Source: Patescibacteria group bacterium
GTDB lineage: Bacteria; Patescibacteriota; Patescibacteriia; JBDRGY01
Direction: 5' to 3'
Assembly (NCBI GenBank): GCA_043817315.1
Contig: JBDRGY010000003.1
Span: 59,181 to 123,180 of the forward strand
DNA length: 64,000 nucleotides
This document shows positions 12,501-33,537 of this stretch, in pieces. Position 1 is the stretch's first letter, and the number at the start of each line of letters is the position of its first letter. The position numbers and the translations under genes were made by a program. Below the pieces are notes generated by a model, which had not been told where the DNA came from, did not search any database, and was given only the letters and a program-made list of their open reading frames with translations.

Positions 12501-15500
12501 AGTAACCATAGGGGTTAACGGAAATATTGAGGCTCATAGTGAACTAATAACCCTATCTTCCAGTTGGAAAGAATATTCAGTTTATTTCGAAAATATTAAT
12601 TGTGGTGGTGGTTCTTGTGGTACAGCCTATCTTAACTTCATATTACCTAATTCACCCGGCAATCTAGTTTCTTTCTATATCAACGACGTCTCCTTACAGA
12701 CTGTCCTTGAAAAACACAGTGACTGGGAAGCTTCCTATCCTAATGATGAAGATGTGCCCAGTTATCAACAGCAAGATCCTCAATTTGTGGCTCGTTCTTG
12801 CAGAATGTATCCAAGGGAAGATTCTTTACAATGCAGCTATTTTGACAGAGCCAACGCCCGTTCCTATAACGGCTGGAAAGGCTATTGTGTAGAAAAAGAT
12901 CCTCGAAATTCCAATTATTGTCTGCAGTGGTGGCCGGTGGATATCATCCAGGGTGAATCTGATATCTTTGGTACGGAACAGATGGCCGGCTATTTCGGCC
13001 GCACCCCGCTTTACTACTGTCTGCAAATGGGTGTTTACGAATTACACCGTTCTTTTTACAAAACCTTAACCTGTAAATACTGCAAGGAGAAATGTCCCAG
13101 TGGCTACACCAAGAGAACAATAGGAGGTGGTGATAACTGCACTTGCTGTTGGCATTGCGGTCAGATAGCCGGTGATCGTAAAAAGGTGTACTGCGATCCG
13201 GTAGGCGGCGATCACTGGGAGATTTACGACGGTGATATTCTTTACGACAAAGATAACAAGCAGGTAGAAATTATTGCTAAGAAATGTGAAGTGGTAGCCA
13301 AGGTGGTGGGAGTTAGAGGAGAAAATATGGCCTGGGCCGAACGCACTAAATATGGTTCTGATTATACGGTGGTGCCGGATATCGGCTCAACCATCGGTAC
13401 CGACAGGGACCCCTTTGGCTCTTTAGTGCCCCCGGCTAATCAAGAGGATTATCCGGACGGCTGGTCTGGCTCCCCCCCAGAATTTACAGGCTCGGCTAAT
13501 GTGCCGGAACCCCAACCTTTATTTGTGATTCCGGACACCCAGGCCAATTATGAGTCCCTGGCCAGGGCTGGTAAGCCGATGTGTTGCTATGACAATCCGG
13601 GTTGTGGCAGTTCCAATGCCAGGATCAATACCCCTGAATATACCAGGAATGAAAAAATCAACACTACACCATCAGGCGGCAAAGAAAGACTAAAGAGGAT
13701 CTTTGCCAAAGGAATGAGTGCCTGGGTCTGGAATGAACCGAGATGTGAAGAGGGATCTGACCTCTTTCAGTGTACTAATCAAACGGATCCTGGCGTACCA
13801 ATCCAGGGAATCAGTGATATAGACGGCCAGGGTTGTGAGAATGATGCCGGCAATCAAGATGACAATCTATGTTTATTTGAAGCGGGTAGTTGTTCCTCAA
13901 AGATATGTATTATTCCCGGGGTGGATGAAAGCAAGATAGGTTCTTATGATGATGACGGCACTCCTTATATGCACGGCCGTTCCTGCGGTTGTCCGGCTGG
14001 TGAAGGTTTTTGTGAAGTAGTGCAACAATGTAATGATCCGGCAGAAGCTGATTATCTCTTCCCTTGTGGTGATGAAGTCTGTTCGGGAGAGGATATTTGC
14101 GTCCAGTCAATGTGTACCGGGGATAATTTGCATCCGGGCTGGGAAGGAACTTATAACTGTGAAGTCCAAAACAACTGTCCGGACGGTGCTTTCTGTAATA
14201 CAAATAAATCTTGTCAGAGTTACGAACAAACCTGTACTTGCCCCGATGGAGATTGCAATCTGCAATCAGATGTATGCACTAACCATCCCACTATCACTTG
14301 TGATGAAGATGCTGACTGTTGTACCGTGGCTGACGGGGTAGAGTGTACCGGCAGTTGGTGTAATCTCAATAATTCTTGGTGGTGCTCGGCTAATTCCGAC
14401 TGTTCTTATTGTGAAGCTACCGGAGAGCTGTGTATTACTGCGGAACAGATTACCGCCTGTGCTGATGCCGGCAGCTCCTGCCTCAATGATGTCTGTAATG
14501 ATTTATGCGGTCCTAACACTCAATATTTTTGCAGTAATAATCCTACTTTAATATGTGACCCGGACGGACAATGTGACCCGGACTGGGGCTGTGATGCCGC
14601 TAGTCGTTGCGTCAAAGTGGATGAAACTTGTGATTGCCCGGCTGATGCTGATGATTATACAGCCAATGATGTTGCCTACTGTGCCTCCACCAACGCAGCC
14701 GGAGATGAAAATTTCTGTCTCCAGGGACAAGAAGCTTGTGGTTGCCTGGGCGGGCCGGCTGATTGTGAAGCCATTGAAAGATGCTCAGTACCGACCGATG
14801 ACGGACCGGACGGTATCCCAGACACTTATGACGATACTCACACTTCGCCCTGTACCGGTGGTGAAGACCTGTGCTGGGAAGATGCCGGAGCTTGTTATGA
14901 CGGAGTATGTTCAGCCGGGGGCAAGCCTTGTGATGACGCTAACCCTTGTGAGGCGGATGAAGGCTATTGTGTCCAGTACATGTGTGTAGTGGATTACGCA
15001 GTATCCAACACAGCCTGGCAAAAAGGCGGAGTCAATTATATGCAGGCTTGCAGTAGTAGCAATCAGTGTGCTGGAGCTCAAGCTTCTTGCCAGAATTTTG
15101 ATGGTGCCTGCTATTTCCCCTATGATGCACCAGAAGACGGTTCGGTCTGTTTTGAAGACGAAGATTGTTTTTCGACGGCTGCTGTGGCCGGTGGCGAATA
15201 TGGAACCTGTAATGCCAAATACTGTTCGGCTGGAGCCTGGGGCCGTTGTGGCGGTGGAGGTCGGTCCTGCAATCAAGGTGATGAATGTGATGATGGTGTG
15301 GGGGGAACATTATGTGTCAAGAAATTATATAGCTCATGTAATGATGCTGAAGATTGTGGCACTCCACCCTTTGGTGTCTGTCGGGGCACCTGCTCTTTTA
15401 CCGGTTGGACTTGCAGAACCAGCTGTTTCCCCTTTGGGGGAAGTTGCAATAACCCGCACTGCATCGGTGGTCCCAATAACAATGAATCTTGTGGCTCCGA

Positions 15501-16017
15501 TATGGATTGTCGGGGAGATGAGGCCTCATCAACCGCTGGTTATGTGTCGGCTGATTCCCACCTGTCGGTTTGGGATCAGGATTTTGAAGACATGCCGGTT
15601 TGCAATCCTGGTGACCGACAGACTTATGATCCCAGCGATGATGCTTTGGATTACTGCTATTATCCTCCTCTAGTTTCCAATGTCAAAGCTAATGGTAGTA
15701 CTCACGAAGATATTACCATTAACGGATCCGGTCCGATTATTCTGACCTTTAACTCTTCGGTCAATGCCGAACAACTGCCCCTGAGACTGGTTATTGTCGA
15801 TTTTGGTGACGGCTATGTTTTCCGCCGTCGCTTTACTCCGGGAGTACAACCCCATGATGATCCCAGCAATCCCCATGTAATTTCTCACCGCTATGAGTAT
15901 AACGGCACTCCCACTGATTACACTATTAAGGTGACTATCAGCGATAACTGGCAAAAAACCAATGATCCCAATCATCCCAACTCACAATACGCTGGGACAA
16001 TCACGGTTGGACCCTAA
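6529..16017 (+). CDS. Giant (3162 aa) secreted/anchored cysteine-rich surface protein with three CBM4/9-like carbohydrate-binding-type modules and a PKD-like C-terminal domain
   Basis: N-terminal hydrophobic signal/anchor. Several hundred Cys in recurring CxxC / C-x-D-x-x-D-C spacing. Three modules starting N/S-x-F-E / DMEEGET ... W and ending Y/I-[ID]-[ND]-[IV]-[VS]-LQ (aa ~760-900, ~1230-1360, ~1910-2060) resemble CBM_4_9. C-terminus has PKD-like VDFGDGY. Uninterrupted 9.5-kb ORF. Confidence 0.7.
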   Translation: MGIKHSLKTKMKKALAFIALFGLVVQIAGPVLLYPEIAHAGLPTFATVIAEPFRQMIDAVKYAIQIAGDVMFKNALRTFTAKIAYDTAVWIGSGGKGQKPLFVTKPGRYLADAADSAAGDFLDQLSTAAWGESLCDIAPELKFSIYESIKIQYSLDEKAIRKASCTASDIWKNVQGTQLIAEMEDMFELEQSSLGQLIEIGLQAPEEAAKGREQKQHEYEFGGGYLPTMTFSGIVKTPSVSLSAMVDRSLDLITKSEEQYTGNAVADAIGVFFNTLIKTWIKTLFDEGLNPNVQEGVGQKPKSGVLAAREKFFSLAVPKFSTGGPVDILNELAACPSDARYRTTNNCVIDDRFRLAVEQKMRVKDAVAQGLLDEYKIFGYDAAGQQPDFRNGYPYNTMVVLRKYRILPVGWELAAKYIRDKEDPRQLHTLKDVLEAYDDCPVCDENSENVGDLCDDNDDCIDGPTAPGLCDFTLDSPLCGLVDPAWVLKAPQVTCNRQGPGEQIVHEDWERIVDVNNDGEINQEDPPVQMVTRANYCADDQTCIKENDDGSCAQYGYCYEEKEIWKIDGNGCPEQYGSCLGFKNSNNKSVAYLTDTLDFDHCDENNVGCKWYCQDWDDTTAGYQCNNYPINPLDADSPGPDGDPATLDDNNQIQCTNPDGCTCYTEDNLADPVLDEAGDSCVIADGEWSCTPKCVLPYECQLAECLCVSWSGDYCNVAPGGTECDLGGQPCTLNNSKLTIDSDAETCKAKDTGCSEYIRIVEGTNLLSNSSFEIFTGDANDGAEDTFDAWVKKPGSTFVTYAQVNPYLGNHTLVIEGGAANDYLAHYFETATPIENRSFTFSYYAKTDNSGCSGAYGIDGDQAAGGGATANYTTNWERYHYTHNFTKHCLDAGHALCSTDADCAAGVSCGGDTSIQPFVRPAPGCKLYVDAAQVEVGFVPTEYKEYNTVNQLYLNENRVACLSEEANCNLYTPRRGGDSVPAVITEAGSCDTSSIDCDQCDEDQVGCRAFREQPLEANAPDKEHAWRTGNHCSDDMSISCATDAECVAASAGICIPEVDFIMDSGKECPARYVGCEEYTNLDIVAQGGEGKEYYTYLRLCAEPGNAGCTTYYTWEGSATAGYQIKIHSLIEGGDGGPCTQIDYGAAPETIQCAGFDICDPGIDGADCREYYDAAGIVYYRMERDTITCSDDCHPMRNTIDDRIYPAVPSENEECSSSYKGCREYKGSTGSNVRLVMDHDFEEGNVGEWNGQISSEAITAGGHSLYTSGAISNSMDVNNNLTYILSFWAKGSGTTLNPITIGTVQFDLEPGEIALNDEWHNYTVGPLVYGDDSDVVNLTISGSGNFFIDNIVLQEVGASLYLIKDSYDICDQVNCDEYYDLQKDKHFLKSFTRLCREEAIGCEALIDTQNSSDNPFAETFFTGTEDELTVAGDLTRTLVNNKKHYCKPDAKGCSRLGAPTKEQDQSVSGFESTFLKNDPDKYDDILCRTREVGCDAFDIEDNDSILYFKDPGRRVCTWQEGVNVGSGQLVSGWFRFGTTEACNPDADIYDTRDDDFNNDFVAGDTNDLCQYRVLGECIGTDDPCNNDTDCGGVDSCVDIKRRWCLKSSPAGECHPCYAKTCPKDESTCTEYRDPLSKAISVNIPEVNALDCEVHCPIQYDGMGEPLLVDADCITVGYAGGGRPGCQPYHYLSNSVDKESCNSIINPDDSCVAFAEMRNLYEDINPEGTTSPFAPAACNGCSINRQGVGNTDNELAEICSDNEDCCANVPFNPGDNVDLGACRANTILKVAPDRECNKWAYCRTSWTINMPNGDKEKMCFEIGACNKVDASGECVNTLDLGVCSGDPTQTCTQDYDCNIGETCVINEITVDSPGEIETIQNLSGLAVAGASWKPDGSVVVPGYYAYAGMKEVGLGIDLINGDMEEGETDPWTPVGDTSSLELETSNPQDYTLKVSASEENHGTAYSLNGWVSEGDKVFINFWAKAGEGASSIRVTIGVNGNIEAHSELITLSSSWKEYSVYFENINCGGGSCGTAYLNFILPNSPGNLVSFYINDVSLQTVLEKHSDWEASYPNDEDVPSYQQQDPQFVARSCRMYPREDSLQCSYFDRANARSYNGWKGYCVEKDPRNSNYCLQWWPVDIIQGESDIFGTEQMAGYFGRTPLYYCLQMGVYELHRSFYKTLTCKYCKEKCPSGYTKRTIGGGDNCTCCWHCGQIAGDRKKVYCDPVGGDHWEIYDGDILYDKDNKQVEIIAKKCEVVAKVVGVRGENMAWAERTKYGSDYTVVPDIGSTIGTDRDPFGSLVPPANQEDYPDGWSGSPPEFTGSANVPEPQPLFVIPDTQANYESLARAGKPMCCYDNPGCGSSNARINTPEYTRNEKINTTPSGGKERLKRIFAKGMSAWVWNEPRCEEGSDLFQCTNQTDPGVPIQGISDIDGQGCENDAGNQDDNLCLFEAGSCSSKICIIPGVDESKIGSYDDDGTPYMHGRSCGCPAGEGFCEVVQQCNDPAEADYLFPCGDEVCSGEDICVQSMCTGDNLHPGWEGTYNCEVQNNCPDGAFCNTNKSCQSYEQTCTCPDGDCNLQSDVCTNHPTITCDEDADCCTVADGVECTGSWCNLNNSWWCSANSDCSYCEATGELCITAEQITACADAGSSCLNDVCNDLCGPNTQYFCSNNPTLICDPDGQCDPDWGCDAASRCVKVDETCDCPADADDYTANDVAYCASTNAAGDENFCLQGQEACGCLGGPADCEAIERCSVPTDDGPDGIPDTYDDTHTSPCTGGEDLCWEDAGACYDGVCSAGGKPCDDANPCEADEGYCVQYMCVVDYAVSNTAWQKGGVNYMQACSSSNQCAGAQASCQNFDGACYFPYDAPEDGSVCFEDEDCFSTAAVAGGEYGTCNAKYCSAGAWGRCGGGGRSCNQGDECDDGVGGTLCVKKLYSSCNDAEDCGTPPFGVCRGTCSFTGWTCRTSCFPFGGSCNNPHCIGGPNNNESCGSDMDCRGDEASSTAGYVSADSHLSVWDQDFEDMPVCNPGDRQTYDPSDDALDYCYYPPLVSNVKANGSTHEDITINGSGPIILTFNSSVNAEQLPLRLVIVDFGDGYVFRRRFTPGVQPHDDPSNPHVISHRYEYNGTPTDYTIKVTISDNWQKTNDPNHPNSQYAGTITVGP

Positions 16018-16049: not shown

Positions 16050-18860
16050 ATGACTCACTTGTTTCGGATAACTGAATTAATTAAAAATTCCCGCAAAGTC
16101 CAACTGGGCGCGGTTATGGTTTTTATTATCGTATTTATTGCCCTGATGATGCCCCAGCAGGCTAATGCTTCCGTTGGCAGTCAAGCGCTAAATATCCTGG
16201 GCAATATTATTGCCGGTTTGATGTGGCCCATTATCTGGCTGTTCGGCAACATGACTCGTCTGATGATCTTTTTGCTGATTCAGGTAGCTAAGTACAATGA
16301 CTTTGCAAATTCTACTGCGGTCAACATAGGTTGGTATCTGGTCAGAGATATTGCCAACCTCTTTTTCGTTATTGTCCTTCTAATCATTGCTGTCAGCACG
16401 GTCTTGGGTATTCAGTCTTGGAGTTATCGCAGCCTTTTGGGCAAGTTCATCCTGATGGTGATTTTGATAAATTTTTCCAAGCTGATCGCTTTATTTTTTA
16501 TAGACTTGAGTCAGGTAATAATGCTTACCTTTGTAGAGGCTTTTGAAGACACCATGGCCAACAATATCTTCGCGGCCGGAGGCTTCAATAAGCTGCTGCA
16601 TATGGGTACCCGTGAAGTTGGTGAATCCCAGGGTCTATCTATAGCAGCTGTATTGGGGTCGACTATTTTAGCCACTATCATGGTAGTGGTTATGTTTATC
16701 GTGCTAACGGCCATGACCATCATGCTGTTAATCAGAATTATTATGCTCTGGCTTTTGATCATCATTTCCCCCCTGGCCTACATGACAGCTACCATCCCGA
16801 CCAGCAAGAAATTTAGCAGCCAATGGTGGGGTATGTTCGGGCAATATCTGATGATCGGTCCGGTTATGGCTTTTTTCATCTGGTTGTCTATGATGCTGAT
16901 TGCCCAGACTCAAGGAGCGCCGTCTACGGAGATATTGGATGCGGGAGTAGCAGAGGAGTCGGTCTTGGGTGAACAACCAGAGGTCTATGGAGCCATTACC
17001 GAGATTTCCGAATCTGGTAATTTTTTAAGCTATGGCATGGCCATTATTTTGCTAACTACTTCTATGATATTTGCCCAGCAATCTGGGGTAATGGGATCCG
17101 GTATTGCCGGCAAGGCGCTGGGAGCGATCCAAAAAACTACCATGGCTCCTTTCAAAACAGCCGGTGGCATAATCAAATACGGACATAATAAGTTATATGG
17201 AAAAACCGGTGTACAACTTAATCCTATGGCTCTGGTACGCGGTGTCCAAGACACATTGAAAAAAAGAGAGAGGGATGATTTGGTTAAAGGTGCTGGAAAG
17301 GCCGGTGCAAGACTGGAAAGAGGGGGGCTGCCAGGCGTCATCGGCGGGTTTTTCGGGGCTGGCCGGGATGCTGCTGAAGCCCATGTCAGTGGTTTTTTGG
17401 GTATTAAAGGAATAGTGAGAGCAGTAAGGGTGGCGCGGCACGCTGCCCCGAGAGTTGCTAAAGTACGTGAGGGTCTGGAGGCAAAACAGGCAGTCATAAC
17501 CCAGAATAGTGATGATTTGGGCGCAAATTATGGAAAGGCTTTTGACAGCACTCATGCCGAAAGACAAACAATGTGGGATAGACATGATGACTTGGAAAGA
17601 GAATACCCGCAACTGGAGCAAAATGTAAGAGATGCTGAAGCTGCTTTTGCAGCGGCTGAAGCCACGGGTACCGATAAAGAAATACAAAAAGCCAGTGATA
17701 AGCTTGATGAAGCCGAGGCCGACGAATCTGCCAATAAGGCAGAGAGGAAGGGTTTAGCTGAATCCGCCGGGCCCAGAGATTTACTGAATCAGGATGAAGA
17801 GCTGGTTAAGAAAGAAGTGGAAACCCGTAAAGGTGTATTAAGAACATTGAATCAAGAGGCCAATAAGGTTCAATCCTATTTGGATAGAATACAACCACCC
17901 AGAGCTTTCTACGCTACTCGGGAAAGGCGGATGCTGGAAGAAGAAGAGGCTGGTAAGATTGACTCAACCAACGAAGATGAGCTGATCCAGATGTTTAGGA
18001 ATGCCCATGCTAATGGTGACATGGTCCAGGCGGCAGCCATTTTTCGTCAAGCTACCAAGGCTGGCCATTTTAATGAAATTATTAATCACGGAGCCAGGGC
18101 AAGGAAAGATTGGTGGCTGGACAAACATGGTGGCACCACTGACAAGAAAGCTGATGGAGTAAAACAGATTGTCTGGCAAGGTGGATTATTTCCCAGTTCA
18201 GCTGGCGGCCCCAATGCCTTTTTCCGGGATGTGATGCAAGGTCAGATGAAAATGGGAGAACAGCATGCCCTATCTTTACAAAACGACTTGAGTAGTTATG
18301 CCGAAGCCATAGGACATTGGGGAGTTGCAGGGCAAATGATTGGTGCCAAGGATGGTAAACTATTCCAGCGGACGGAACCGGATCGTTTGAAACGGTGTGA
18401 TGGTGAATCCGGTAAGAAAGATACTGAAGGCTTGATGCGTCATTCCAGCCGCTTACTGCTGGGGGGTGAAACAGTCGATCCTTTCGATCCCTCAAAAAGA
18501 GAACATACTTTATCACCACTGGGTGTCTCTATTCTAAAGCGTACCATTGTCAGTACCTTGAGTAACTTGCCGCGCGGCCGGTTTAACGAAAACCAAGCGG
18601 CTGCTTTGGTTACCCCCCGCAACCTCAAAATTATGAGAGAGGTTGCCGCAACAATTCCTGATAGTGACGTTTTAAAGTATAATGGTAGACGACGCAAAAC
18701 CAAAGAACTATTAGAAGAAATGATCAGGGGCATTCAGCGATATGCTGCCACTTCTCTGGACAAATCTGGCGAGGAGATGGACGATTTAATAGAATCCATA
18801 GATGGTTTGAAAGACGCATTACCCACAAATATTTCAACACCACCAAAAGCAAAAGCATGA
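16050..18860 (+). CDS. VirB6/TrbL-like polytopic membrane protein with a ~550-aa charged/coiled-coil C-terminal extension
   Basis: 936 aa. N-terminal signal-like segment then ~7 TM helices within the first ~380 aa, as in TrbL/VirB6. The remaining sequence is hydrophilic and K/E/A/R-rich. Immediately downstream of the giant protein, with 4-nt ATGA overlap into the next ORF. Confidence 0.5.
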   Translation: MTHLFRITELIKNSRKVQLGAVMVFIIVFIALMMPQQANASVGSQALNILGNIIAGLMWPIIWLFGNMTRLMIFLLIQVAKYNDFANSTAVNIGWYLVRDIANLFFVIVLLIIAVSTVLGIQSWSYRSLLGKFILMVILINFSKLIALFFIDLSQVIMLTFVEAFEDTMANNIFAAGGFNKLLHMGTREVGESQGLSIAAVLGSTILATIMVVVMFIVLTAMTIMLLIRIIMLWLLIIISPLAYMTATIPTSKKFSSQWWGMFGQYLMIGPVMAFFIWLSMMLIAQTQGAPSTEILDAGVAEESVLGEQPEVYGAITEISESGNFLSYGMAIILLTTSMIFAQQSGVMGSGIAGKALGAIQKTTMAPFKTAGGIIKYGHNKLYGKTGVQLNPMALVRGVQDTLKKRERDDLVKGAGKAGARLERGGLPGVIGGFFGAGRDAAEAHVSGFLGIKGIVRAVRVARHAAPRVAKVREGLEAKQAVITQNSDDLGANYGKAFDSTHAERQTMWDRHDDLEREYPQLEQNVRDAEAAFAAAEATGTDKEIQKASDKLDEAEADESANKAERKGLAESAGPRDLLNQDEELVKKEVETRKGVLRTLNQEANKVQSYLDRIQPPRAFYATRERRMLEEEEAGKIDSTNEDELIQMFRNAHANGDMVQAAAIFRQATKAGHFNEIINHGARARKDWWLDKHGGTTDKKADGVKQIVWQGGLFPSSAGGPNAFFRDVMQGQMKMGEQHALSLQNDLSSYAEAIGHWGVAGQMIGAKDGKLFQRTEPDRLKRCDGESGKKDTEGLMRHSSRLLLGGETVDPFDPSKREHTLSPLGVSILKRTIVSTLSNLPRGRFNENQAAALVTPRNLKIMREVAATIPDSDVLKYNGRRRKTKELLEEMIRGIQRYAATSLDKSGEEMDDLIESIDGLKDALPTNISTPPKAKA

Positions 18861-24281: not shown

Positions 24282-24755
24282 ATGCAATTTCTGGTTCCCC
24301 AATTTATAGACACGGAAGATAGAATATTCGGTCCGATTTCCACCAGGCAATTCGTGGAAATCCTGGCCGGTTTTGGCATGATGTATGTTGCCTACAAAAT
24401 GAGCACTTTTTGGCTCTTTGCTATGGAGGCAGTTTTTATTTTAGGCTTGGTAGTGGTTTTTGCCTTTGTCCGTATCAACGGGCAGGGCTTTCATTTTTTT
24501 GTCCTTAATCTAATCCAGACTTTACGTCGGCCCAAGATTAAAATTTGGTTAAAGGTAATTGCCGATAATAAAATATTTCCTTCCAAGCAGAAAGAAGTAA
24601 CAGTAGCGGCAACTGCGCCTAAACCGATGGTAACCTCCTCGCGACTGACAGAATTGTCTTTGGTAGTTGATACCGGGGGAGTGTATAAATCAGACGAAGA
24701 AAAAGCCAAGGAATTAATAAATTCTCAAAATGCCCAAAGAAAAAGAAAAAAGTAA
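24282..24755 (+). CDS. PrgI-family / VirB3-like small membrane protein (T4SS)
   Basis: 157 aa. N-terminus VPQFIDTEDRIFGPISTRQF matches the PrgI-family start (VPKDI..YEEKIfGLTlRQ). Two TM helices. Sits directly upstream of VirB4, as PrgI/VirB3 does. Confidence 0.55.
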   Translation: MQFLVPQFIDTEDRIFGPISTRQFVEILAGFGMMYVAYKMSTFWLFAMEAVFILGLVVVFAFVRINGQGFHFFVLNLIQTLRRPKIKIWLKVIADNKIFPSKQKEVTVAATAPKPMVTSSRLTELSLVVDTGGVYKSDEEKAKELINSQNAQRKRKK

Positions 24756-25437
24756 GATGAAACCATCTCAGACTAAGAAGCAAAAAGCCTCAACCCAGGC
24801 TTATCTGGACATATCCGAAATTAAAGATGATTGTGTGGTAATGAAGGACGGTACTTTGCGCATGGTATTGTTAGTTTCTTCTATTAATTTTTCGTTAAAA
24901 TCCCAAGATGAACAAAATGCTGTTATCCAAGCATACACCATGTTTCTCAATACTCTTGATTTTCCCTTGCAGATTGTCATTCAGTCCAGGAGGCTAAATA
25001 TTGAAGATTACCTGAAAAAATTACAAAAGACAGAAAGAGAACAGGTCAATGAATTGCTGAAAATGCAAACGGCTGATTATCGTAAATTCGTCGGAGAATT
25101 AGTGGAATTAGGAGATATTATGAGCAAGCGCTTCTTCGTGGTTGTACCCTATTCAGCTTTGACCAATAAACCCAAATCTTTTATGGATCGTATCAGGGAG
25201 ACTTTGTCCCCGACCTCGATTATTAAATTGAGCCAATCTAAGTTTGAAAAATTCAGAAACGAATGCCGCAAGAGGACCGAAATGATAATGGGCGGATTGG
25301 GTTCAATGGACTTGAAGGCTGTCATTTTGGACACTCAATCTTTGATTGAACTGTATTACAATAGTTATAACCCTACTGTTTCAGATTCACAAAAATTAAC
25401 AGAACCAGGAAAGGTGCAAGCCGAACCCTATGATTGA
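24730..25437 (+). CDS. VirB4 N-terminal-domain-like protein (CagE/TrbE/VirB-type region), translationally coupled to VirB4
   Basis: 235 aa. YLDISEIKDDCVVMKDGTLRMVLLVSSINFSLKSQDEQNAVIQAYTMFLNTLDFPLQIVIQSRRLN resembles the N-terminal CagE_TrbE_VirB region of VirB4 ATPases. Stop overlaps the VirB4 start (tATGATTGA). Confidence 0.4.
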   Translation: MPKEKEKSKMKPSQTKKQKASTQAYLDISEIKDDCVVMKDGTLRMVLLVSSINFSLKSQDEQNAVIQAYTMFLNTLDFPLQIVIQSRRLNIEDYLKKLQKTEREQVNELLKMQTADYRKFVGELVELGDIMSKRFFVVVPYSALTNKPKSFMDRIRETLSPTSIIKLSQSKFEKFRNECRKRTEMIMGGLGSMDLKAVILDTQSLIELYYNSYNPTVSDSQKLTEPGKVQAEPYD

Positions 25438-27436
25438 ATTAGCTAAAGAAAAAGAAGTAAAATCCCAAGAAGAAATCCTGACTAAGGAGGAAAAAACCAA
25501 GAAAGAGCAGGAAGAGCTTCTGGAGAAAAAGGAACTTTACGAAGCTACCCGTAGTTATTTGGAAGGAGTGATTTCAGTTAAGGATTTGATCGCCCCGGCT
25601 GGCATGAGGGTGCAGCCCTCCTATGTGGAGTTGGGAGACAAGTTGGTGCGAACCGTTTTTGTGGTGACCTACCCTCGTTATATTGCCGTTGGCTGGTTCG
25701 CCCCGATTATCAGCATGAACGTGCCTTTGGACATTTCCATGTATTTTTATCCAGTACCCTCTCAGATTGTTTTAAAGCAACTTAAGAAAAAGGTGGGTAC
25801 CCTGGAGGCGGATATTATTGCTGATGCCGAAAAAGGAGCCCCCCGCGACCCCATTAGAGAAACAGCCCTGAAAGACATCGAGCGACTAAGAGACGATCTG
25901 ACCCAGGGTATTGAGAAATTTTTCCAGTTTGCACTATACGTTACTGTCTACGCCGACGATATCAAAGAACTTAATGAATTATCGGAAAAGGTAGAGGGCA
26001 TGTTTGGCTCCAAGCTGGTATATTCCAAACGAGTTTTGTATCAAGCGGAGCAAGGGTTTAATTCTACATTGCCCTTGGGCAGCGATGAGCTGCTAATCAG
26101 CTTTAATATGAATTCTTCTCCTTGCGCCTCTTCTTTTCCCTTTATTTCTTCTGAATTGTCTTCAGACAACGGGGTTCTTTACGGCATTAACCGACACAAC
26201 AATAGTTTAATATTGTTTGATCGCTTTAGTCTACAAAACGCTAACAGTGTAGTCTTTGCTACCTCAGGAGCGGGTAAGAGTTATGCGGTTAAATTGGAGG
26301 CCTTGCGCAGTTTGATGATGGGCACTAGTGTCATCATTATCGATCCGGAAATGGAATATAAATATTTGTGCGAAGCGGTTGGTGGGACCTATATTAACAT
26401 TTCTTTGAATTCGGAAAGTAAGATTAATCCTTTTGATTTACCAAGACCTGTCGGAGAGGGAGTAAAACCGGCTGATATTATTCGTAGTGCGGTCATTACC
26501 CTGAAGGGAATGATGCGCCTGATGTTGGGAGACCTTACTCACCAAGAGGATTCGCTGGTTGACCGAGCTCTTTTAGAAACCTATGCCAAAAAAGATATTA
26601 CTTCTGATTCTGATCTGGCAAAAGTAGAGCCTCCTTTGATGTCGGATTTTGAAGAAGTGATGGGCGGCATGGAGGGCAGTGATAGCCTGGTTAGCAGAAT
26701 CAAGAAATATACCGAAGGAACATTTTCCGGTCTTTTTAACAGTCCTACTAATATTGAAATGGATAATCAGATGGTGGTTTTCAGTGTCCGTGATTTGGAA
26801 GATGAGTTAAGACCGATCGGCATTTCTACAATCGTTTCCTATATCTGGAACGTGGTCCGATCTGAAATGAAAAAGAGAGTCTTGGTAATCGATGAAGCCT
26901 GGTGGTTGATGCAAAACGAAGATTCAGCCAAATTCATTTTTGCTCTGGTAAAACGATGTCGTAAATATTATTTAGGAGTTACTACCATTACTCAAGACGT
27001 CAATGACTTTTTGAGATCGCCTTATGGCCAAGCCATTGTCACCAACTCAGCTATCCAAATGCTGTTGAAGCAGTCACCTGCTGGCATCGATATTCTGGTC
27101 AAAACCTTTATGCTGACTCAGGGTGAAAAGTACTTACTTCTAGAATCGGGAGTGGGAGAGGGTATTTTCTTTGCTGGAAATAGTCACGTAGCTATCAAAG
27201 TGGTCGCTTCCTATACCGAAGATCAACTAATTACTTCTGATCCCAGGCAGCTGCTGGAAATTGAGCAGGCCAAGAGAGAATTTCAGGAGGAATTAGACAG
27301 CGGCCAGCTACCACCCCAAGAAGAAGGAGAGGGGGCCGCAGATGGTCTTTATGAGCCGGAACCGATAGACCGTAAGGCAGAAGAAATCACCAAAGAAGGT
27401 GCGCTCGGTCCGGAGCCCAAACAGATCCAACAATAA
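25430..27436 (+). CDS. virB4: Type IV secretion system VirB4/TrsE/TraE-family ATPase
   Basis: 668 aa. Gram-positive-type VirB4 N-region (KLVRTVFVVTYPRYIAVGWFAPI ... NVPLDISMYFYPV ... NSTLPLG). Walker A at FATSGAGKSY. Walker B at VLVIDEAWWLM. Acidic C-terminal tail. Confidence 0.8.
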   Translation: MIELAKEKEVKSQEEILTKEEKTKKEQEELLEKKELYEATRSYLEGVISVKDLIAPAGMRVQPSYVELGDKLVRTVFVVTYPRYIAVGWFAPIISMNVPLDISMYFYPVPSQIVLKQLKKKVGTLEADIIADAEKGAPRDPIRETALKDIERLRDDLTQGIEKFFQFALYVTVYADDIKELNELSEKVEGMFGSKLVYSKRVLYQAEQGFNSTLPLGSDELLISFNMNSSPCASSFPFISSELSSDNGVLYGINRHNNSLILFDRFSLQNANSVVFATSGAGKSYAVKLEALRSLMMGTSVIIIDPEMEYKYLCEAVGGTYINISLNSESKINPFDLPRPVGEGVKPADIIRSAVITLKGMMRLMLGDLTHQEDSLVDRALLETYAKKDITSDSDLAKVEPPLMSDFEEVMGGMEGSDSLVSRIKKYTEGTFSGLFNSPTNIEMDNQMVVFSVRDLEDELRPIGISTIVSYIWNVVRSEMKKRVLVIDEAWWLMQNEDSAKFIFALVKRCRKYYLGVTTITQDVNDFLRSPYGQAIVTNSAIQMLLKQSPAGIDILVKTFMLTQGEKYLLLESGVGEGIFFAGNSHVAIKVVASYTEDQLITSDPRQLLEIEQAKREFQEELDSGQLPPQEEGEGAADGLYEPEPIDRKAEEITKEGALGPEPKQIQQ

Positions 27437-27447
27437 ATTTTAGCTAT

Positions 27448-28092
27448 ATGCCAAAACGTTCAACAAAAAATCAAGGTATGTCCCGGGTTACTATTATGTT
27501 GATAGCAGTGGCCATTCTGTTGATTGTAGTTTTGATCGTGGCTTACTTTATCTACCAGAGAAATCCCCAGAACGAGAATACCAATACAACTACAAACCTA
27601 AATACCAATCAAGCTACCACTAACTTGAACGTAAACAATAGCCTCAACACCAATACTAGCACCAATGTAAATCTAAACTTAAACACAGCGCCAACTACTA
27701 CCGATGCCAAGATAAAAGCCGAGCTACAAAGAATAGCCATCAACTTTACAGAGATTTGGGGTAGCTATTCCAACCAGAGCGATTTCGAGAACATTTTAGA
27801 CCTCAAAGTATTTATGACCGAGAAGATGGGCGATTGGGCTGATGATTATGTGAAAAACGCCAAGGAGAATCAGCCGGCAGCCGGCATCTACTATGGTGTT
27901 ACCTCTAAGGTGTTATCAGCCAAAGTGTCCAAATTTGATAAAGACAAAGGGACAGCTGAATTCCTGGTTACCACCCAACGCAAAGAATCGACAGGTACCG
28001 TAGCCAATTCCCGAATTTTCTATCAAGATAATATTATCAAGTTCGAAAAAGAGGGCGGCGTTTGGAAAGTGGCTGGTTCTTTTTGGCAATAA
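27448..28092 (+). CDS. Bitopic membrane protein with Asn/Thr-rich linker and ~140-aa C-terminal globular domain (VirB8/PrgL-like candidate)
   Basis: 214 aa. N-terminal TM (VTIMLIAVAILLIVVLIVAYFIY), NTNTTTNLNTNQATTNLNVNNSLNTNTST linker, then a mixed alpha/beta domain. Position after VirB4 and the bitopic topology fit VirB8. No sequence motif confirms it. Confidence 0.3.
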   Translation: MPKRSTKNQGMSRVTIMLIAVAILLIVVLIVAYFIYQRNPQNENTNTTTNLNTNQATTNLNVNNSLNTNTSTNVNLNLNTAPTTTDAKIKAELQRIAINFTEIWGSYSNQSDFENILDLKVFMTEKMGDWADDYVKNAKENQPAAGIYYGVTSKVLSAKVSKFDKDKGTAEFLVTTQRKESTGTVANSRIFYQDNIIKFEKEGGVWKVAGSFWQ

Positions 28093-28106
28093 TTAAAATT
28101 ACATTT

Positions 28107-28466
28107 ATGGTTGATTATTGGGAAGGCGCCGATCAAAATGATAAAAAGGAACTGGAGTTATTGGAGAAGGATATCAGAAAGAAGTTAGAAGATTTTGAAA
28201 GAATAATTCCACAAACTCAGAACTTCGAGGCTTGGCAGACAGAATATGATAAAATTGCCGAGCTGTTATTTAAAAGATTTGCTCTTAAAAATAAGATACT
28301 AAACAGCCAGGAGAATTGGTTCCGTAATGGTAAAGGTTCTATCCCTGATTGGCAATCAAAATTACCCACAGCAAGGGGTAATATTTCGAGGGAGCTTAAG
28401 GAAGATCTTGCAGTATCAGCTTTACTAATTGAGGATTTATCTAAGTCAGGAGGGAAAAATGGTTGA
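28107..28466 (+). CDS. Small hydrophilic hypothetical protein
   Basis: Likely start MVDYWEG at 28107. The track ORF start at 28062 overlaps the upstream gene. No motifs. Confidence 0.3.
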   Translation: MVDYWEGADQNDKKELELLEKDIRKKLEDFERIIPQTQNFEAWQTEYDKIAELLFKRFALKNKILNSQENWFRNGKGSIPDWQSKLPTARGNISRELKEDLAVSALLIEDLSKSGGKNG

Positions 28467-29568
28467 TGTTGCCCAAGCTGGACAAGTAGCAACACAGCTG
28501 ATAAGTCGTGTTCCTTTGAAATTGATGATGGGTCAAGCCGCTAATTTGATGGGAGCCCAAGGGGCTATGGAGACTTTTAGGGGGGTATCTAGTCAAGATA
28601 TTAAGAATTATGCCAATTATGCCAAGTCGGCCTATGTCACTAAGCGTACTGCAGCTAGAGAAAGGGCCAAGGAAAGAAGAAAAAAGATACAGAACCGTCG
28701 CAATGCGCCATTACAAACTGGCGGCGCAGCGATCGCTAGTGCCTCTCAACAAGAACGTGAGGCCGATGAAGACAGACAGTTGCAGGAGCAAGATTTGTAT
28801 GATCGTAATCCGCAGATGGCCAAAGTTGGTCCAGAGCAGCAAAGCCTGGTGCAGAGAACCTTGAACAGAAGAAAGGCCGCCAGGGCCAGAAAAAGAAGAG
28901 AAGCCACCAAGCTAAAAAGTCAGACCGGTGTCAAGTCATCATTACCAAGCCAGGGAATGATCCAGTCAAGCTTAGCGGGCCAGGGCCAAATTCCTTCCTG
29001 GGGAGATCAAGCCGGTGGCGGAGGATCACAAGCCGCTGGCACAGAAGCTGATGCAGGAGCAGCAGCACAAGATCAGGCTGAAAAAGAAGAGCCGGAAAAG
29101 GTAGAAGAAGACAAGCAGGGAGAAGCCAGGAGAAGACTCAATGCCTTTCGTCGCTTAAGTAAGGCTAAGGAATCCGGGGAAATTGGTGATCTGAAACTTA
29201 AGGATATAAAAAAGGCCAAAGAAGTAATCAAGCACCTTCAGAATATATATCGGGTGATCAACGGAACATCGGCCGTTTCTGTTGTGGGATTGATTATTAC
29301 ATTTCTGGTGATGAATGCCCAATTGATTTTGGGTAACGGGTTCAAGATAAAAATTGTGCCACCACTTCATTGGAGTGAAGTCGGTTTGATCGGATTAGTA
29401 GATGTCCTGTTGGCCGTTTTACTTCTGCTTGCCATGTTACAGATTGCCATATTTGGGATAATGATTTACAACATCCTACACCCCGAAGCCTTTATTGAAT
29501 ATATGGATATAATATTAAAATCGGGCCTTCAGGGTTTGTTTGATACCTTAAAGGCAATCTTTACCTGA
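28459..29568 (+). CDS. Membrane protein with long basic/Gln-rich N-terminal domain and C-terminal TM helices
   Basis: Start ATG overlaps the previous stop (ATGGTTGA). N-terminal ~260 aa are K/R/Q/A-rich (RERAKERRKKIQNRR ... RRKAARARKRRE). C-terminal 110 aa carry 2-3 TM helices. Confidence 0.4.
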   Translation: MVDVAQAGQVATQLISRVPLKLMMGQAANLMGAQGAMETFRGVSSQDIKNYANYAKSAYVTKRTAARERAKERRKKIQNRRNAPLQTGGAAIASASQQEREADEDRQLQEQDLYDRNPQMAKVGPEQQSLVQRTLNRRKAARARKRREATKLKSQTGVKSSLPSQGMIQSSLAGQGQIPSWGDQAGGGGSQAAGTEADAGAAAQDQAEKEEPEKVEEDKQGEARRRLNAFRRLSKAKESGEIGDLKLKDIKKAKEVIKHLQNIYRVINGTSAVSVVGLIITFLVMNAQLILGNGFKIKIVPPLHWSEVGLIGLVDVLLAVLLLLAMLQIAIFGIMIYNILHPEAFIEYMDIILKSGLQGLFDTLKAIFT

Positions 29569-29585
29569 TATCTAATTATAAGTCT

Positions 29586-31121
29586 GTGAAAAAAATTGGT
29601 TGGTTTATCGTTCTATTGATAATAATATTTGGGATTTTTGGCTTGCATCAAACAGTTGTTAAAGCCCAAGAGGCAGGTTCTGCCGAGCACGAGTCCTTAA
29701 CCCTCCAAGTTCCCCTGGGTGCCGGTAAAGATATCCTGCAATACCCCTATTTCCCCCAATACCTGGAATGGTTATTTGAATATTTCGTAGGTATCACCGC
29801 CATCTTAGCTGCTATCGGCTTGATGTGGGGTGGTTATAAATGGATTGCTGCTTCTGGCAATCCGGGCATGATTACCTCGGCCAAAGGCAGTATTATGAAC
29901 GCAGCTGTTGGTTTGGTCATTGCTTTAACTTCCTGGTTGTTACTTAACACCCTAAATCCTCGGATTACTAATCTGGAGTTTCCCCAGATAAAAAGTCCGG
30001 GGTTTCTCACCGAATCCCTTTCCTGTTCTGGCAAAGACTTTCCCTTGACCGGTGACGACGGTACTTGTTTACCGCCTGATCAGATCCCGCCCTTGGCACT
30101 CTGCCGAGTTGCTGGCCAAGATCCGGTTTATGGAGATGTTGCCTACGTTGCCGAACCTTGGGGTACTAATTGTGGAGAATCGGCTAGCGGTAATGCTTGC
30201 CAGCCGGCAGGTGTGGCTGACGATGACGAGAATTTCAATCAGATGGGTACAGCCTGCGCTGACGGTAGTAAACAAGCTTGTTTCATTATTAACAAAGACT
30301 ATAGTCAATCGGCTTATTTCCGGTGTATGGATTCATTATCTCTACCTGAAGCTAATGCCAAGGGATTCAATGATTCTGCTTGGACTGGGGGTGATGGGCC
30401 TGAATTGTGTATATCCGATTTTCGTTTAAAATGCGGTAAGATATATTGGGAAGAGGGGAATAGTAGTGGGGACGGTTTTTTCGGAACCTTTAGTTATAGG
30501 CGACGCCTAAAAGATCGTTCTGCCTGTGTGATTGATCTTAATAGTTATACCATATACCGGTCAAAATCAGACTGTCTGGGAAATTGGTTTGGTTGCGGTG
30601 CTTATGCTTTTTGTGAGATTGGTTGTTTCGATAATGCTTGGGTAGTAGACCACCGTGGTACAGTCACTCAAGCGGGTTGTCCTACGGGTGTCGGTCATGC
30701 GGGAAATCTCTGCGACGACCTTAGTCAGTTAGCTGATACTTATAATGTCCCCCATCCTTCCCAAAATGCGCCGGTCCTGGACCAACTAATCAGTTGTGTT
30801 ACCAGCAATGTGGCCCCTGGGATGATAGATATGTCCAAATTATTCACAGTTGATCGGGATCACCCTACCTGTAATTACACCCGAGGACATGCTCTTTGTG
30901 AACCGTGTTCCCACACTACCAATTCTTGTCATTATGGTGGCAGCAGCGGAAACGAAGGTGCCTTGGCCGTAGATTTCAATGCTGCCGCAGGTACCACAGA
31001 AGAAGATTTATTCGATGCAATCGAAGGTTTGGTGGTAGCCCCTGGCGCCTGTGCTGGCTTTGCCGGAGAATACTATTTTGAGGACGACCACACTCATGTA
31101 GCAGCTGGTGGCTGTGGTTAA
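29586..31121 (+). CDS. VirB2/TrbC-like pilin hairpin module fused to a Cys-rich ectodomain and a C-terminal possible zinc-hydrolase-like region (paralog 1, 511 aa)
   Basis: Signal peptide (MKKIGWFIVLLIIIFGIFGLHQTVVKAQEA). Then two hydrophobic helices joined by a short loop (FVGITAILAAIGLMWGGYKWIAASGNPGMITSAKGSIMNAAVGLVIALTSWLLL), the T-pilin architecture. About 30 Cys follow. The C-terminal ~140 aa (absent from the paralog) carry H-x-x-G ... ALAVD ... HTH residues. Confidence 0.45.
   Translation: MKKIGWFIVLLIIIFGIFGLHQTVVKAQEAGSAEHESLTLQVPLGAGKDILQYPYFPQYLEWLFEYFVGITAILAAIGLMWGGYKWIAASGNPGMITSAKGSIMNAAVGLVIALTSWLLLNTLNPRITNLEFPQIKSPGFLTESLSCSGKDFPLTGDDGTCLPPDQIPPLALCRVAGQDPVYGDVAYVAEPWGTNCGESASGNACQPAGVADDDENFNQMGTACADGSKQACFIINKDYSQSAYFRCMDSLSLPEANAKGFNDSAWTGGDGPELCISDFRLKCGKIYWEEGNSSGDGFFGTFSYRRRLKDRSACVIDLNSYTIYRSKSDCLGNWFGCGAYAFCEIGCFDNAWVVDHRGTVTQAGCPTGVGHAGNLCDDLSQLADTYNVPHPSQNAPVLDQLISCVTSNVAPGMIDMSKLFTVDRDHPTCNYTRGHALCEPCSHTTNSCHYGGSSGNEGALAVDFNAAAGTTEEDLFDAIEGLVVAPGACAGFAGEYYFEDDHTHVAAGGCG
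29690..29995 (+). repeat. Copy 1 of ~300-bp near-identical (>90%) tandem duplication (pilin-module coding region)
   Basis: Same nucleotide stretch recurs at 31245..31550. Identical 66-aa antisense ORFs at 29834..30034 and 31391..31591 confirm the recent duplication. Confidence 0.8.
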
Positions 31122-31130
31122 TAAAATAAT

Positions 31131-32246
31131 ATGAAAGTAAAAAAAGATAAAATTTGGTTAGCGGTTATCTTCATAAGTATATTATGGGGAGTTTTGGTTG
31201 TCGGCCCTATAGTGGCAGAGGCTGAGGTGGCCACCCCCGCTGAGCATGACCCCTTGACCCTGCAAATTCCCCTAGGCGCCGGTAAAGAGGTTCTGCAATA
31301 TCCCTATTTCCCCCAATACCTGGAATGGTTATTTGAATATTTTGTCGGTATCACCGCTATCTTGGCTGCTATCGGTCTGATGTGGGGTGGTTATAAATGG
31401 ATTGCCGCTTCCGGTAATCCGGGCATGATTACCTCAGCCAAAGGTAGTATTATGAACGCAGCTGTTGGCCTGGTCATTGCTTTAACCTCCTGGTTGTTGC
31501 TAAACACTCTAAACCCCCGGATAACCAGCTTAGAGTTTCCCCAGATAATAAGTCCAGGGGTATTAAGCGATGCACTTTCTTGCGCTGGCAAAGATTATCC
31601 CTTGACCGGAGCAGATGGAAAATGCTTGCCTGCTAATCAAATTCCGCCACTAAAATTGTGTAGAGTGGAAGGAGAAGATCCTGTTTATGGGGCATTGAAA
31701 TATACTAAAAAGCCATGGGAAACAGTTTGTGGCACAACAAATAAAGGTGACGCCTGTTTACCCCTAATAAAAGATGGTAAGGCAACAGGTAACCAGTTCG
31801 GAACGGCTTGTGCTGATGGAAGCAAGAATGTTTGTTTTATACAGGGCATGGACTCCTCGCAAAACGGCTACTTTTCATGTGTTGATACTGTTCAGCTAAA
31901 TGAAGCCCTGGCCAATGGTTTCTCCGAATCGTCCTTTACGGGAGGAGATGGGGCAGAAGGCTTTAATCTTGCCGAGCCCAAGATGTATTGTGGTAGTCTT
32001 TGGTGGGAAAAGGGAGTTACCGACGGAGACGGGTTTTTTGGTACAGCTGCTTATTCTGCAATGTGGGGAAGGGACAGATCTGCCTGTGTAATAAATATGG
32101 CGGCCGGTGTCCAGTGGAAAATTAATTATGCTGATTGTAACTTAAACCTAATAAAACACTGGTGTATGATAGGATGTTGGAATGAAGCTTGGATTATTGA
32201 TGAATATGGCCAAAAACAAAATCGAGGCTGTAGTTATTGGTATTGA
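31131..32246 (+). CDS. VirB2/TrbC-like pilin hairpin module fused to Cys-rich ectodomain (paralog 2, 371 aa)
   Basis: N-terminal ~140 aa nearly identical to 29586..31121. Cys-rich tail is divergent but alignable (GTACADGSK..CFI, GGDG, GDGFFGT, DRSACVI). Confidence 0.45.
   Translation: MKVKKDKIWLAVIFISILWGVLVVGPIVAEAEVATPAEHDPLTLQIPLGAGKEVLQYPYFPQYLEWLFEYFVGITAILAAIGLMWGGYKWIAASGNPGMITSAKGSIMNAAVGLVIALTSWLLLNTLNPRITSLEFPQIISPGVLSDALSCAGKDYPLTGADGKCLPANQIPPLKLCRVEGEDPVYGALKYTKKPWETVCGTTNKGDACLPLIKDGKATGNQFGTACADGSKNVCFIQGMDSSQNGYFSCVDTVQLNEALANGFSESSFTGGDGAEGFNLAEPKMYCGSLWWEKGVTDGDGFFGTAAYSAMWGRDRSACVINMAAGVQWKINYADCNLNLIKHWCMIGCWNEAWIIDEYGQKQNRGCSYWY
31245..31550 (+). repeat. Copy 2 of ~300-bp near-identical tandem duplication
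   Basis: See 29690..29995. Confidence 0.8.
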
Positions 32247-32268: not shown

Positions 32269-33537
32269 ATGACACCAAAAGTAAAAAAAATATTAATCAT
32301 CGTTGCTTACATTGTCACGGCGATTTTTATGGCTTTTGTTATTTACTGGACTTTCTTTGGTGACCGGGATGGAGGCGGAGAAGTTGTTAATGTTAACGGC
32401 CGCTTGGTCAATCTGGGACCCGATGGTACTCTGCCCAATATCAACACCATTGATGTCAGCAACCTGAATTATAGTGTCAATACCAATCAAGTTGTTTCAG
32501 CCAACACTAACGCCGCCTTGCCTGATATTGCCGATGTAGCCACAGGTAGTCTGACCAAAACCACTAAACTCAATGATGATATTGCCTATTACTCTACTAC
32601 TTCTATTGATGGTTCCAATATGTATTACTACGATCGGGAAGACGGACTGTTTTATGTGGTATCAGCCGAAGACGGTTCACTTAGTCTCTTAACTGCCCAG
32701 AAATTTCATTCGGTTGAGAATGTTACCTGGTCGCCCACCAAAGACAAGGCCATCATCGAATTTCCTGATGGTACCAAGATCATGTATGATTTTAGGAATA
32801 ATAAGCAGTACACTTTACCGGAACAATATGAAGAAGTTGATTTCGCCGAAACCGGTCGGGAGATTGTCTTTAAATATATGGGTGAAGATGAAGATGATCG
32901 TTTTCTAGCCATTGCCAACCCAGATGGAACAGGAATGCAGGTTGTAGAGCAACTATCAGATAGAGCTGATAGTTTTGAAGCCGATTATTCGCCATCCGGA
33001 CAAGTAGTCGGTTTTTACAAGGAATCAACAACAGGAGAGAGCCAGGAAGTATATTTTATCGGAAAATACGGAGAAAACTTCAAGTCATTATCGGTCAACG
33101 GTAAAGGTTTTGAGTCTCAATGGTCGTCCGATGGTGAGCAGCTAGTCTATTCAGTCTACAATTCGGGAACCAATTACAATCCTACTTTGTGGCTAGCTGG
33201 AGCTCAAGGGGAAAGTATTGGGGAAAATAAAATAAACACCGGTTTACAGACCTGGGCAGATAAATGTGCCATTTCGGGCAGTACAGCTATTTGTGGAGTG
33301 CCCACCAGCCTGGAAAGAGGCAGCGGCCCCTTTCCCGAGCTATCCTCCAGTAGCCCTGACGTTTTTTACCAAGTTGATCTAAATTCAGGTAACAGTACGC
33401 CCCTGGCTATTCCGGTCTACGGCGATGGTACCGGCCAATTTCAAGTTAAAAACATCCATATCGACGAGAGTGGACGTTACATGTATTTTACGGATGGCTT
33501 TACCGGGAAATTACACAAGATCCAGATAGAATACTAG
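32269..33537 (+). CDS. Membrane-anchored beta-propeller-like protein (TolB/PD40-like repeats)
   Basis: 422 aa. N-terminal TM (ILIIVAYIVTAIFMAFVIYWTFF). Recurring ~45-aa units with S/Y-P-D/S-G pattern (YSTTSIDGSNMYY, SPTKDKAIIEFPDGT, ANPDGTGMQ, YSPSGQVVGF, WSSDGEQLVYS). Confidence 0.4.
   Translation: MTPKVKKILIIVAYIVTAIFMAFVIYWTFFGDRDGGGEVVNVNGRLVNLGPDGTLPNINTIDVSNLNYSVNTNQVVSANTNAALPDIADVATGSLTKTTKLNDDIAYYSTTSIDGSNMYYYDREDGLFYVVSAEDGSLSLLTAQKFHSVENVTWSPTKDKAIIEFPDGTKIMYDFRNNKQYTLPEQYEEVDFAETGREIVFKYMGEDEDDRFLAIANPDGTGMQVVEQLSDRADSFEADYSPSGQVVGFYKESTTGESQEVYFIGKYGENFKSLSVNGKGFESQWSSDGEQLVYSVYNSGTNYNPTLWLAGAQGESIGENKINTGLQTWADKCAISGSTAICGVPTSLERGSGPFPELSSSSPDVFYQVDLNSGNSTPLAIPVYGDGTGQFQVKNIHIDESGRYMYFTDGFTGKLHKIQIEY

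Follow-up and report, generated by a model that had tools for sequence, protein, structure and literature searches.

Two adjacent genes, here called A and B, lie within a 64,000-nucleotide stretch (the window) of contig JBDRGY010000003.1, assembly GCA_043817315.1, a metagenome-assembled genome (MAG) of a Patescibacteria group bacterium. By family, both encode VirB2-like pilins of a Patescibacteria type IV secretion system (T4SS), and their products may be incorporated into a pilus. The product of A ends in an additional domain whose most likely identity, judging from its residues and its predicted structure, is that of a divergent zinc peptidase of the LAS type, with the hedgehog/DD-peptidase fold, like MEROPS family M15. 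The fusion of this domain to a pilin is a Patescibacteria-wide architecture and not a one-off. We see about an even chance that the whole explanation is correct, namely, that A and B are old tandem VirB2-like pilins and that A ends in a LAS-type peptidase cutting peptidoglycan where the pilus or channel crosses the wall. The two genes and the parts of their products are as follows.

29586 to 31121, plus strand: gene A, 511 amino acids (aa), GTG start; signal peptide, T4SS_pilin hairpin, Cys-rich middle domain, and LAS-like, zinc-peptidase-like domain.
29586 to 29666, plus strand: predicted Sec signal peptide of A (aa 1-27), a hydrophobic segment with the cleavage site, read by eye, between VVKA and QEA.
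29772 to 29954, plus strand: T4SS_pilin (VirB2-like) two-helix hairpin of A (aa 63-123, PF18895).
29970 to 30701, plus strand: Cys-rich middle ectodomain of A (aa 129-372, 16 Cys), common to A and B.
30702 to 31118, plus strand: C-terminal LAS-like (hedgehog/DD-peptidase-like) domain of A (aa 373-511, eight conserved Cys).
30930 to 30932, 30972 to 30974, and 31095 to 31097, plus strand: putative zinc ligands of A, H449, D463, and H504, respectively.
30912 to 30914, 31080 to 31082, and 31089 to 31091, plus strand: putative catalytic residues of A, H443, E499, and H502, respectively.
31131 to 32246, plus strand: gene B, 371 aa; signal peptide, T4SS_pilin hairpin, and Cys-rich ectodomain, without the LAS-like domain.
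31329 to 31511, plus strand: T4SS_pilin hairpin of B (aa 67-127, PF18895).

In the list of open reading frames (ORFs), A and B are neighbors on the same strand, with exactly the coordinates given by a first reading of the DNA (here, the original prediction), and the NCBI label for each is simply "pilin." The expected hydrophobic segments, an N-terminal signal segment followed by the two helices of a hairpin, were found in both proteins (aa 1-27, 62-82, and 101-121 in A). Both products match the T4SS_pilin family PF18895 well above its gathering cutoff of 26.6 bits (A, E = 6e-11 and 42.7 bits; B, E = 3.7e-11 and 43.4 bits), and the hairpin of A shows a weak, subthreshold match to the NCBIfam Mbov_0395 pilin-like conjugal transfer protein. 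The profile score, the signal peptide with its two-helix hairpin, and the neighboring T4SS core genes, with VirB4-like and PrgI-like genes upstream, bear out the VirB2/TrbC likeness that had been proposed from the letters, and eight relatives of A match the TrbC/VirB2 family PF04956 itself. Because a cleaved signal peptide and two membrane helices leave both ends of the protein outside, the C-terminal parts of A and B must, on this predicted topology, be extracellular; the 14 to 24 cysteines that they contain are consistent with such a location. The ectodomains are Cys-rich and Gly/Asp-rich, as originally described: over ∼240 aa, Cys occurs 16 times in A and 14 times in B, and the Gly and Asp contents are 12% and 6 to 9%, respectively. 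This middle domain is rare, with four homologues only in 5.8 billion clusters, to which a profile search added no more; that of A has no Pfam match at E ≤ 10, and its AlphaFold2 model (predicted local distance difference test score, 44.7) was too poor for a fold search. An extra ∼140 aa with the motifs CHYGG, ALAVDF, and EDDHTHV follows in A only and has no equivalent in B, again as first described.

The C-terminal domain of A has no sequence match in Pfam (E ≤ 10), NCBIfam, or the PDB. Its structure could be modeled with confidence, and the best structural neighbors of the model, which come mixed with unrelated HAD cap domains, are LAS/M15 peptidases and the Sonic hedgehog N-domain (ShhN). 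The neighbors and their scores are as follows.

VldE C-terminal L,D-endopeptidase: 7.8.
Sonic hedgehog N-domain: 7.1.
Drosophila hedgehog: 7.0.
Zn DD-peptidase 1LBU (Streptomyces albus; 25% identity): 6.5.
VanYB: 6.5.
Ply500: 5.8.
VanXYc: 5.8.
LysB4: 5.6.
LdcB/DacB: 5.3 to 4.9.

The zinc site of VldE, a LAS/M15-like peptidoglycan endopeptidase, is made up of H, D, and H, and the enzyme has an HxH motif (PMC11667670). The model of the A domain runs from a strand (AVDF) through a helix to a strand ending in YFE and a strand beginning with THV, which agrees with the motif order in the ShhN sequence; the order of His, Asp on a strand, helix, Glu strand, and HxH strand is shared with LAS/M15 peptidases and ShhN alike. 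Locally, SLHYEGRAVDI and E...HIH of ShhN resemble SCHYGG..ALAVDF and E..HTH of A. An hhalign comparison, used for residue register only and made with an ShhN sequence verified as identical to PDB 6e1h_C, puts six residues of the domain in order on the ShhN strings HH, SLHYEG, AVD, YYE, and HIH, at low probability. The register and the conservation of each residue among 156 diverged homologues of the domain are as follows.

H443: second H of HH in ShhN, 98% conserved.
H449: H of SLHYEG in ShhN, 100% conserved.
D463: D of AVD in ShhN, 98% conserved.
E499: E of YYE in ShhN, 94% conserved.
H502: first H of HIH in ShhN, 99% conserved.
H504: second H of HIH in ShhN, 98% conserved.

We take these positions to be those of mouse Shh H135, H141, D148, E177, H181, and H183 (Hall et al. 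1995). A His...Asp...His triad with its last His in HxH is conserved across the family, at a noncanonical spacing, and eight Cys are at least 97% conserved. The zinc-hydrolase-like residues in which the original prediction had seen a loose likeness to LAS/M15 peptidases have thus stood up to a wider comparison, with the putative H/D/H ligands 98 to 100% conserved. The same residues could also belong to a noncatalytic binding module like the hedgehog signaling domain, with a host-surface ligand, and the protein would then be an adhesin. The best sequence likeness is indeed to the ShhN motif SLHYEGRAVDI / HIH, the neighboring domains in relatives are Ig/fn3-like, and no peptidase profile matches. 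However, conservation of the catalytic set is 94 to 99%, with Glu and the first HxH His among the conserved residues; these two are needed for catalysis and not just for metal binding, and the nearest bacterial structural neighbors are all active peptidoglycan peptidases; a binding module is, in our judgment, improbable.

The domain is widespread among pilins. The first homology search showed that many pilins of ∼300 aa end in the same module of ∼135 aa. A word-indexed search with the C-terminal domain alone returned 2 proteins, and an exhaustive profile search of representatives at 50% identity returned 461 at E ≤ 1e-3, 218 at E ≤ 1e-10, and 77 at E ≤ 1e-30, with family members coming almost entirely from Patescibacteria. 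The module is located no more than 25 aa from the C terminus in 153 of 160 proteins and usually starts ∼30 to 40 aa after the second hairpin helix. A Pfam scan of 132 members detected PF18895 in 101 and PF04956 in 8; none of the 132 matched any peptidase family. Genome context was sampled at 61 species-representative loci, nearly all from Patescibacteria. The module is fused to the hairpin at 51 of these loci, further pilin ORFs (up to six) lie within 10 kb at 34, and virB4 is found 1 to 3.5 kb upstream at 11, as in this window. A pilin-anchored wall hydrolase had been called unusual in the original prediction; the fusion is not an isolated oddity. The pilin-peptidase fusion appears to be undescribed, and neither pilin-fused domains nor the domain family turned up in the searchable literature; what is new is the family of pilin-fused LAS-like domains, the pilin arrays of Patescibacteria and LAS-like peptidases being already known.

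Besides the module, some family members contain fn3/Ig domains, a weakly M64-like region with HExxH, or an N-terminal ectodomain of great length, and others carry 600 to 1,700 aa of extra domains. For example, two proteins, P0008 (aa ∼310-672) and P0014 (aa ∼300-606; locus L002, 10001-11821), have fn3/Ig-like domains and an HExxH region (HEAAH or HELAH) after the LAS-like domain, with a weak Peptidase_M64 match in P0014; as far as their sequences indicate, these would be pilins with two different metallopeptidase-like modules. An array of five short pilin genes is located 5.5 kb downstream of P0014. The pilin-LAS fusion is also carried by L017 (CAYOCJ010000001.1, a 633-kb contig on which virB4 is again upstream) and by L061, labeled "uncultured Gammaproteobacteria" and "Bdellovibrionales"; these are either mislabeled bins or cases of rare transfer outside Patescibacteria.

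Several results weigh against a wall-cutting pilin. Foldseek gave no significant match to the PDB (best E = 0.55; TM score, 0.36) and only weak matches to BFVD, although the top PDB match is again ShhN and the BFVD matches include phage "Peptidase" and M15A entries, which speak for the LAS reading; phmmer against PDB sequences produced only a spurious proteinase-inhibitor match. No profile links the domain to any peptidase family (Pfam at E ≤ 10, 132 members; the PDB profile search was empty), the hhalign probability against ShhN is only 2 to 15%, and the His-Asp spacing is 13 residues versus 6 in M15 and hedgehog. A search of the 64 kb with a hidden Markov model of the hairpin detected no pilin besides A and B and no short pilin gene; both proteins bear add-ons of 25 to 40 kDa, and a tightly packed VirB2-type filament built of A and B alone may be sterically difficult. 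Finally, because a related genome (L003, described below) does not have the terminal domain at this locus, the domain is dispensable in some lineages.

Two rival explanations draw on these results. In the first, the C-terminal end of A would be a Cys-rich structural domain unrelated to LAS peptidases, and its His/Asp/His likeness to them would be convergent or due to chance. In its favor, all of the profile and Foldseek statistics are nonsignificant, the alignment covers the C-terminal half of the domain only, and LAS enzymes have nothing equivalent to its three N-terminal helices and Cys-rich loops; even so, we rate this rival as very unlikely. Because no profile-level match places the domain in the named M15 or hedgehog families, it is treated here as working like them and not as a proven member. 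The second rival concerns the hairpin, which could be a mere membrane anchor or export handle. No pilus would then be made from A or B, and the two proteins would be membrane-tethered, or proteolytically released, surface enzymes and adhesins beside the T4SS channel, like the anchored hydrolases of the PrgK/TraG type. The bulky ectodomains of both proteins without a short pilin in the window, the long extra domains of other family members, and the normal lack of pili in Gram-positive-type T4SSs (PMC12102498) all fit such an anchor. Conversely, purifying selection on the hairpin is extreme (see below), beyond the need of a simple anchor, and at 34 of the 61 loci the fusion occurs within short-pilin arrays, as expected of a minor filament subunit. 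C-terminal peptide extensions of F-pilin are, moreover, reportedly displayed on the pilus surface (Rondot et al. 1998). A hairpin that serves as an anchor alone is considered unlikely.

The genes around A and B include the following.

24282 to 24755, plus strand: PrgI/VirB3-like small membrane protein (PF12666 PrgI, E = 4.8e-6, 27.5 bits, cutoff 27), at the start of the T4SS block.
25430 to 27436, plus strand: VirB4-like T4SS ATPase (PF19044 TraG P-loop, E = 6e-27, plus AAA_10 and DUF87), ∼2.1 kb upstream of A.
27448 to 29568, plus strand: membrane proteins between virB4 and the pilins (27448-28092, 214 aa; 28429-29568, 379 aa with a C-terminal transmembrane bundle).
28062 to 28466, plus strand: third listed ORF between virB4 and the pilins, 134 aa, no Pfam match.
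32269 to 33537, plus strand: downstream N-terminally anchored protein, 422 aa, with weak beta-propeller/TolB-like signals.

The Pfam scan of the ORFs between virB4 and the pilins gave no match. The order of the two membrane-protein genes is kept in two related genomes, L001 and L003, and the 134-aa ORF has no tblastn match in L001. The gene for the 422-aa protein always lies 3' of the pilin gene or genes in the three related genomes (L001, 4408-5667; L003, 3165-3395), and the protein, 58% identical in L001, may be an unrecognized part of the T4SS apparatus. Farther upstream, with housekeeping genes (Prs, PPDK_N, and 23S rRNA IVP) between them and the T4SS block, are the genes for a giant, secreted, extremely Cys-rich protein of 3,162 aa with one CBM_4_9 carbohydrate-binding domain (6529-16017) and, after it, for a 936-aa polytopic membrane protein without a Pfam match (16050-18860), possibly an extended VirB6/PrgH-like channel subunit. 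Elsewhere in the window are two giant Kelch-repeat proteins of 1,594 and 2,034 aa (49122-53906 and 53915-60019) and a protein of 562 aa (61351-63039) whose DsbA-like thioredoxin domain is C-terminal; it could help to form disulfides in the many secreted proteins that are rich in Cys.

L001 is a syntenic contig of another MAG, with VirB4 84% and RadA 75% identical to those of the window. It contains one intact A-like gene, P0004, whose 527-aa product has the same three-part architecture as A; with this architecture present in an independent MAG, an assembly artifact that fused two genes was rejected. On the 3' side of P0004, an 84-aa ORF (4170-4424) encodes no more than a signal peptide and the beginning of the first hairpin helix, is 41 to 46% identical to A and B, and, judged by this likeness, is the truncated remnant of a second pilin copy. 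The decayed copy places the duplication of A and B before the split from L001. In L003, the locus holds a single B-like pilin, P0003, with the next gene directly after it.

Aligned over 364 aa, the A and B proteins share 60% of their residues, and from aa ∼50 to 128 they do not differ at all. It had been claimed that the first ∼300 nucleotides (nt) of the two genes are >90% identical, which proved too high: these 300 nt are 75% identical, the signal-peptide part only ∼50%, and a value of 90% applies only to a 240-nt block (29694-29933 versus 31251-31490; 216 of 240 positions, with an exact run of 41 nt). The ectodomain tails have diverged, as had been noted, but are still clearly homologous. 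Substitutions between A and B were counted by the Nei-Gojobori method as rates at nonsynonymous (dN) and synonymous (dS) sites and as the proportion of synonymous differences (pS). In the hairpin core (29733-29969 versus 31290-31526), dN is 0.006, dS is 0.59, and pS is 0.41, with 23 synonymous differences in 79 identical codons; in the ectodomain, dN is 0.49 and the synonymous sites are saturated (pS, 0.80). With a dS of 0.59 in the hairpin and saturation in the ectodomain, A and B are old tandem paralogues, and the identity of their hairpins is mainly the result of extreme purifying selection. Because pS is lower in the hairpin than in the ectodomain (Fisher P = 4e-7), an older gene conversion is possible, as is constraint or selection on synonymous sites.

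The original prediction had instead put forward gene conversion or a very recent duplication. A very recent duplication, or ongoing conversion of the 5' ends, combined with diversifying selection on the ectodomains, would be in keeping with the 240-nt block and its 41-nt exact run, with the lower pS of the hairpin, and with the variation of pilin arrays in Patescibacteria (PMC12102498). However, the 23 synonymous differences in otherwise identical codons, the ∼50% identity of the signal-peptide region, and a duplication older than the L001 split all argue against it, and saturated synonymous sites mean that dN/dS cannot show positive selection. Very recent duplication was rejected on the hairpin dS, the ectodomain pS, and the truncated second copy in L001; an older conversion is what is left of the original proposal, and the scenario as a whole seems to us distinctly improbable.

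Taken as old tandem pilins, A and B suggest the following mechanism. Once the signal peptide is removed, the hairpin would sit in the membrane or in the pilus wall with both ends outside, so that the Cys-rich ectodomain and the terminal domain of A would be extracellular. H449, D463, and H504 would be the zinc ligands of this domain and H443, E499, and H502 its catalytic residues, with four disulfides as stabilizers. Held outside the membrane by the T4SS pilin hairpin, the domain would cleave peptidoglycan stem peptides or cross-links at the crossing point; zinc binding, peptidase activity, and the peptidoglycan substrate are all what we infer for it. The target may be the bacterium's own wall, a VirB1/PrgK-like role in a lineage that is mostly without VirB1; most Patescibacteria with VirB2 homologues lack VirB1 (PMC12102498), and no peptidoglycan-hydrolase family was matched among the Pfam-scanned ORFs of the window, a scan that left out some small ORFs. 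Alternatively, the target may be the wall of the host cell to which epibionts attach. B and the shared Cys-rich domain may provide variable surface or adhesive subunits. A more far-reaching version, which we regard as doubtful, holds that VirB2-type pilins throughout the phylum bear an active hedgehog/DD-peptidase-like zinc peptidase on the T4SS pilus, making the pilus a wall-cutting tool that replaces VirB1 and breaches the host wall during epibiotic attachment, with a domain that may be a bacterial relative not far from the ancestral hedgehog zinc site.

Southlakia epibionticum, the one genetically tractable Patescibacterium, requires its T4SS and pilin array for epibiotic growth (PMC10633639), and it is not yet understood how the Gram-positive-type T4SS of Patescibacteria builds a pilus and crosses walls without a recognizable VirB1 (PMC12102498). 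A peptidase domain that is conserved, looks catalytically intact, and is fused to a pilin is a concrete candidate for wall crossing that can be tested by mutation, and with such an add-on these ultrasmall bacteria may cut their way through cell walls. The domain family, several hundred clusters in size, is labeled merely "pilin" by current annotation.

Among known systems, A and B are closest to the VirB2-like pilins of Patescibacteria (PF18895), being of the same family by profile and in the same setting near virB4 and prgI. Pilin arrays at Patescibacteria T4SS loci are known (PMC12102498, PMC10633639, PMC12857230), including 441 tandem arrays (PMC12102498), and A and B are likewise tandem paralogues, 60% identical overall versus a maximum of 54% reported for arrays (PMC12102498). 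The described pilins are treated as small, with no fused domains mentioned, whereas A and B have 511 and 371 aa, a rare Cys-rich ectodomain, and, in A, an enzyme-like domain. That domain differs from LAS/M15 peptidases, including the MT3 domain of VldE, and from hedgehog in its lack of a Pfam profile match and in its longer His-Asp spacing, and from LAS/M15 peptidases also in an additional half at its N terminus, helical and Cys-rich (eight conserved Cys), and in being fused to a pilin and not to SH3, LysM, or peptidoglycan-binding domains. In its proposed role, local wall opening for a T4SS, A resembles VirB1, PrgK, TraG(pIP501), TrsG, and CD419. The wall hydrolases of Gram-positive T4SSs are membrane anchored and encoded in the T4SS cluster (PMC12102498). 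Unlike A, however, VirB1 and these hydrolases are separate proteins with lytic transglycosylase, lysozyme, or CHAP/NlpC-P60 domains, none of which had a Pfam match in A, B, or the scanned neighbors, so A is at most their analogue and not a member. Structural proteins of other envelope-crossing machines also carry their own wall hydrolase, among them flagellar FlgJ, phage tape-measure proteins with the MT3 motif, and VgrG3 of the type VI secretion system; these are different machines and scaffolds, none with a VirB2-type pilin, and a fusion of the A type would be a precedent for enzyme-bearing VirB2-type pilins.

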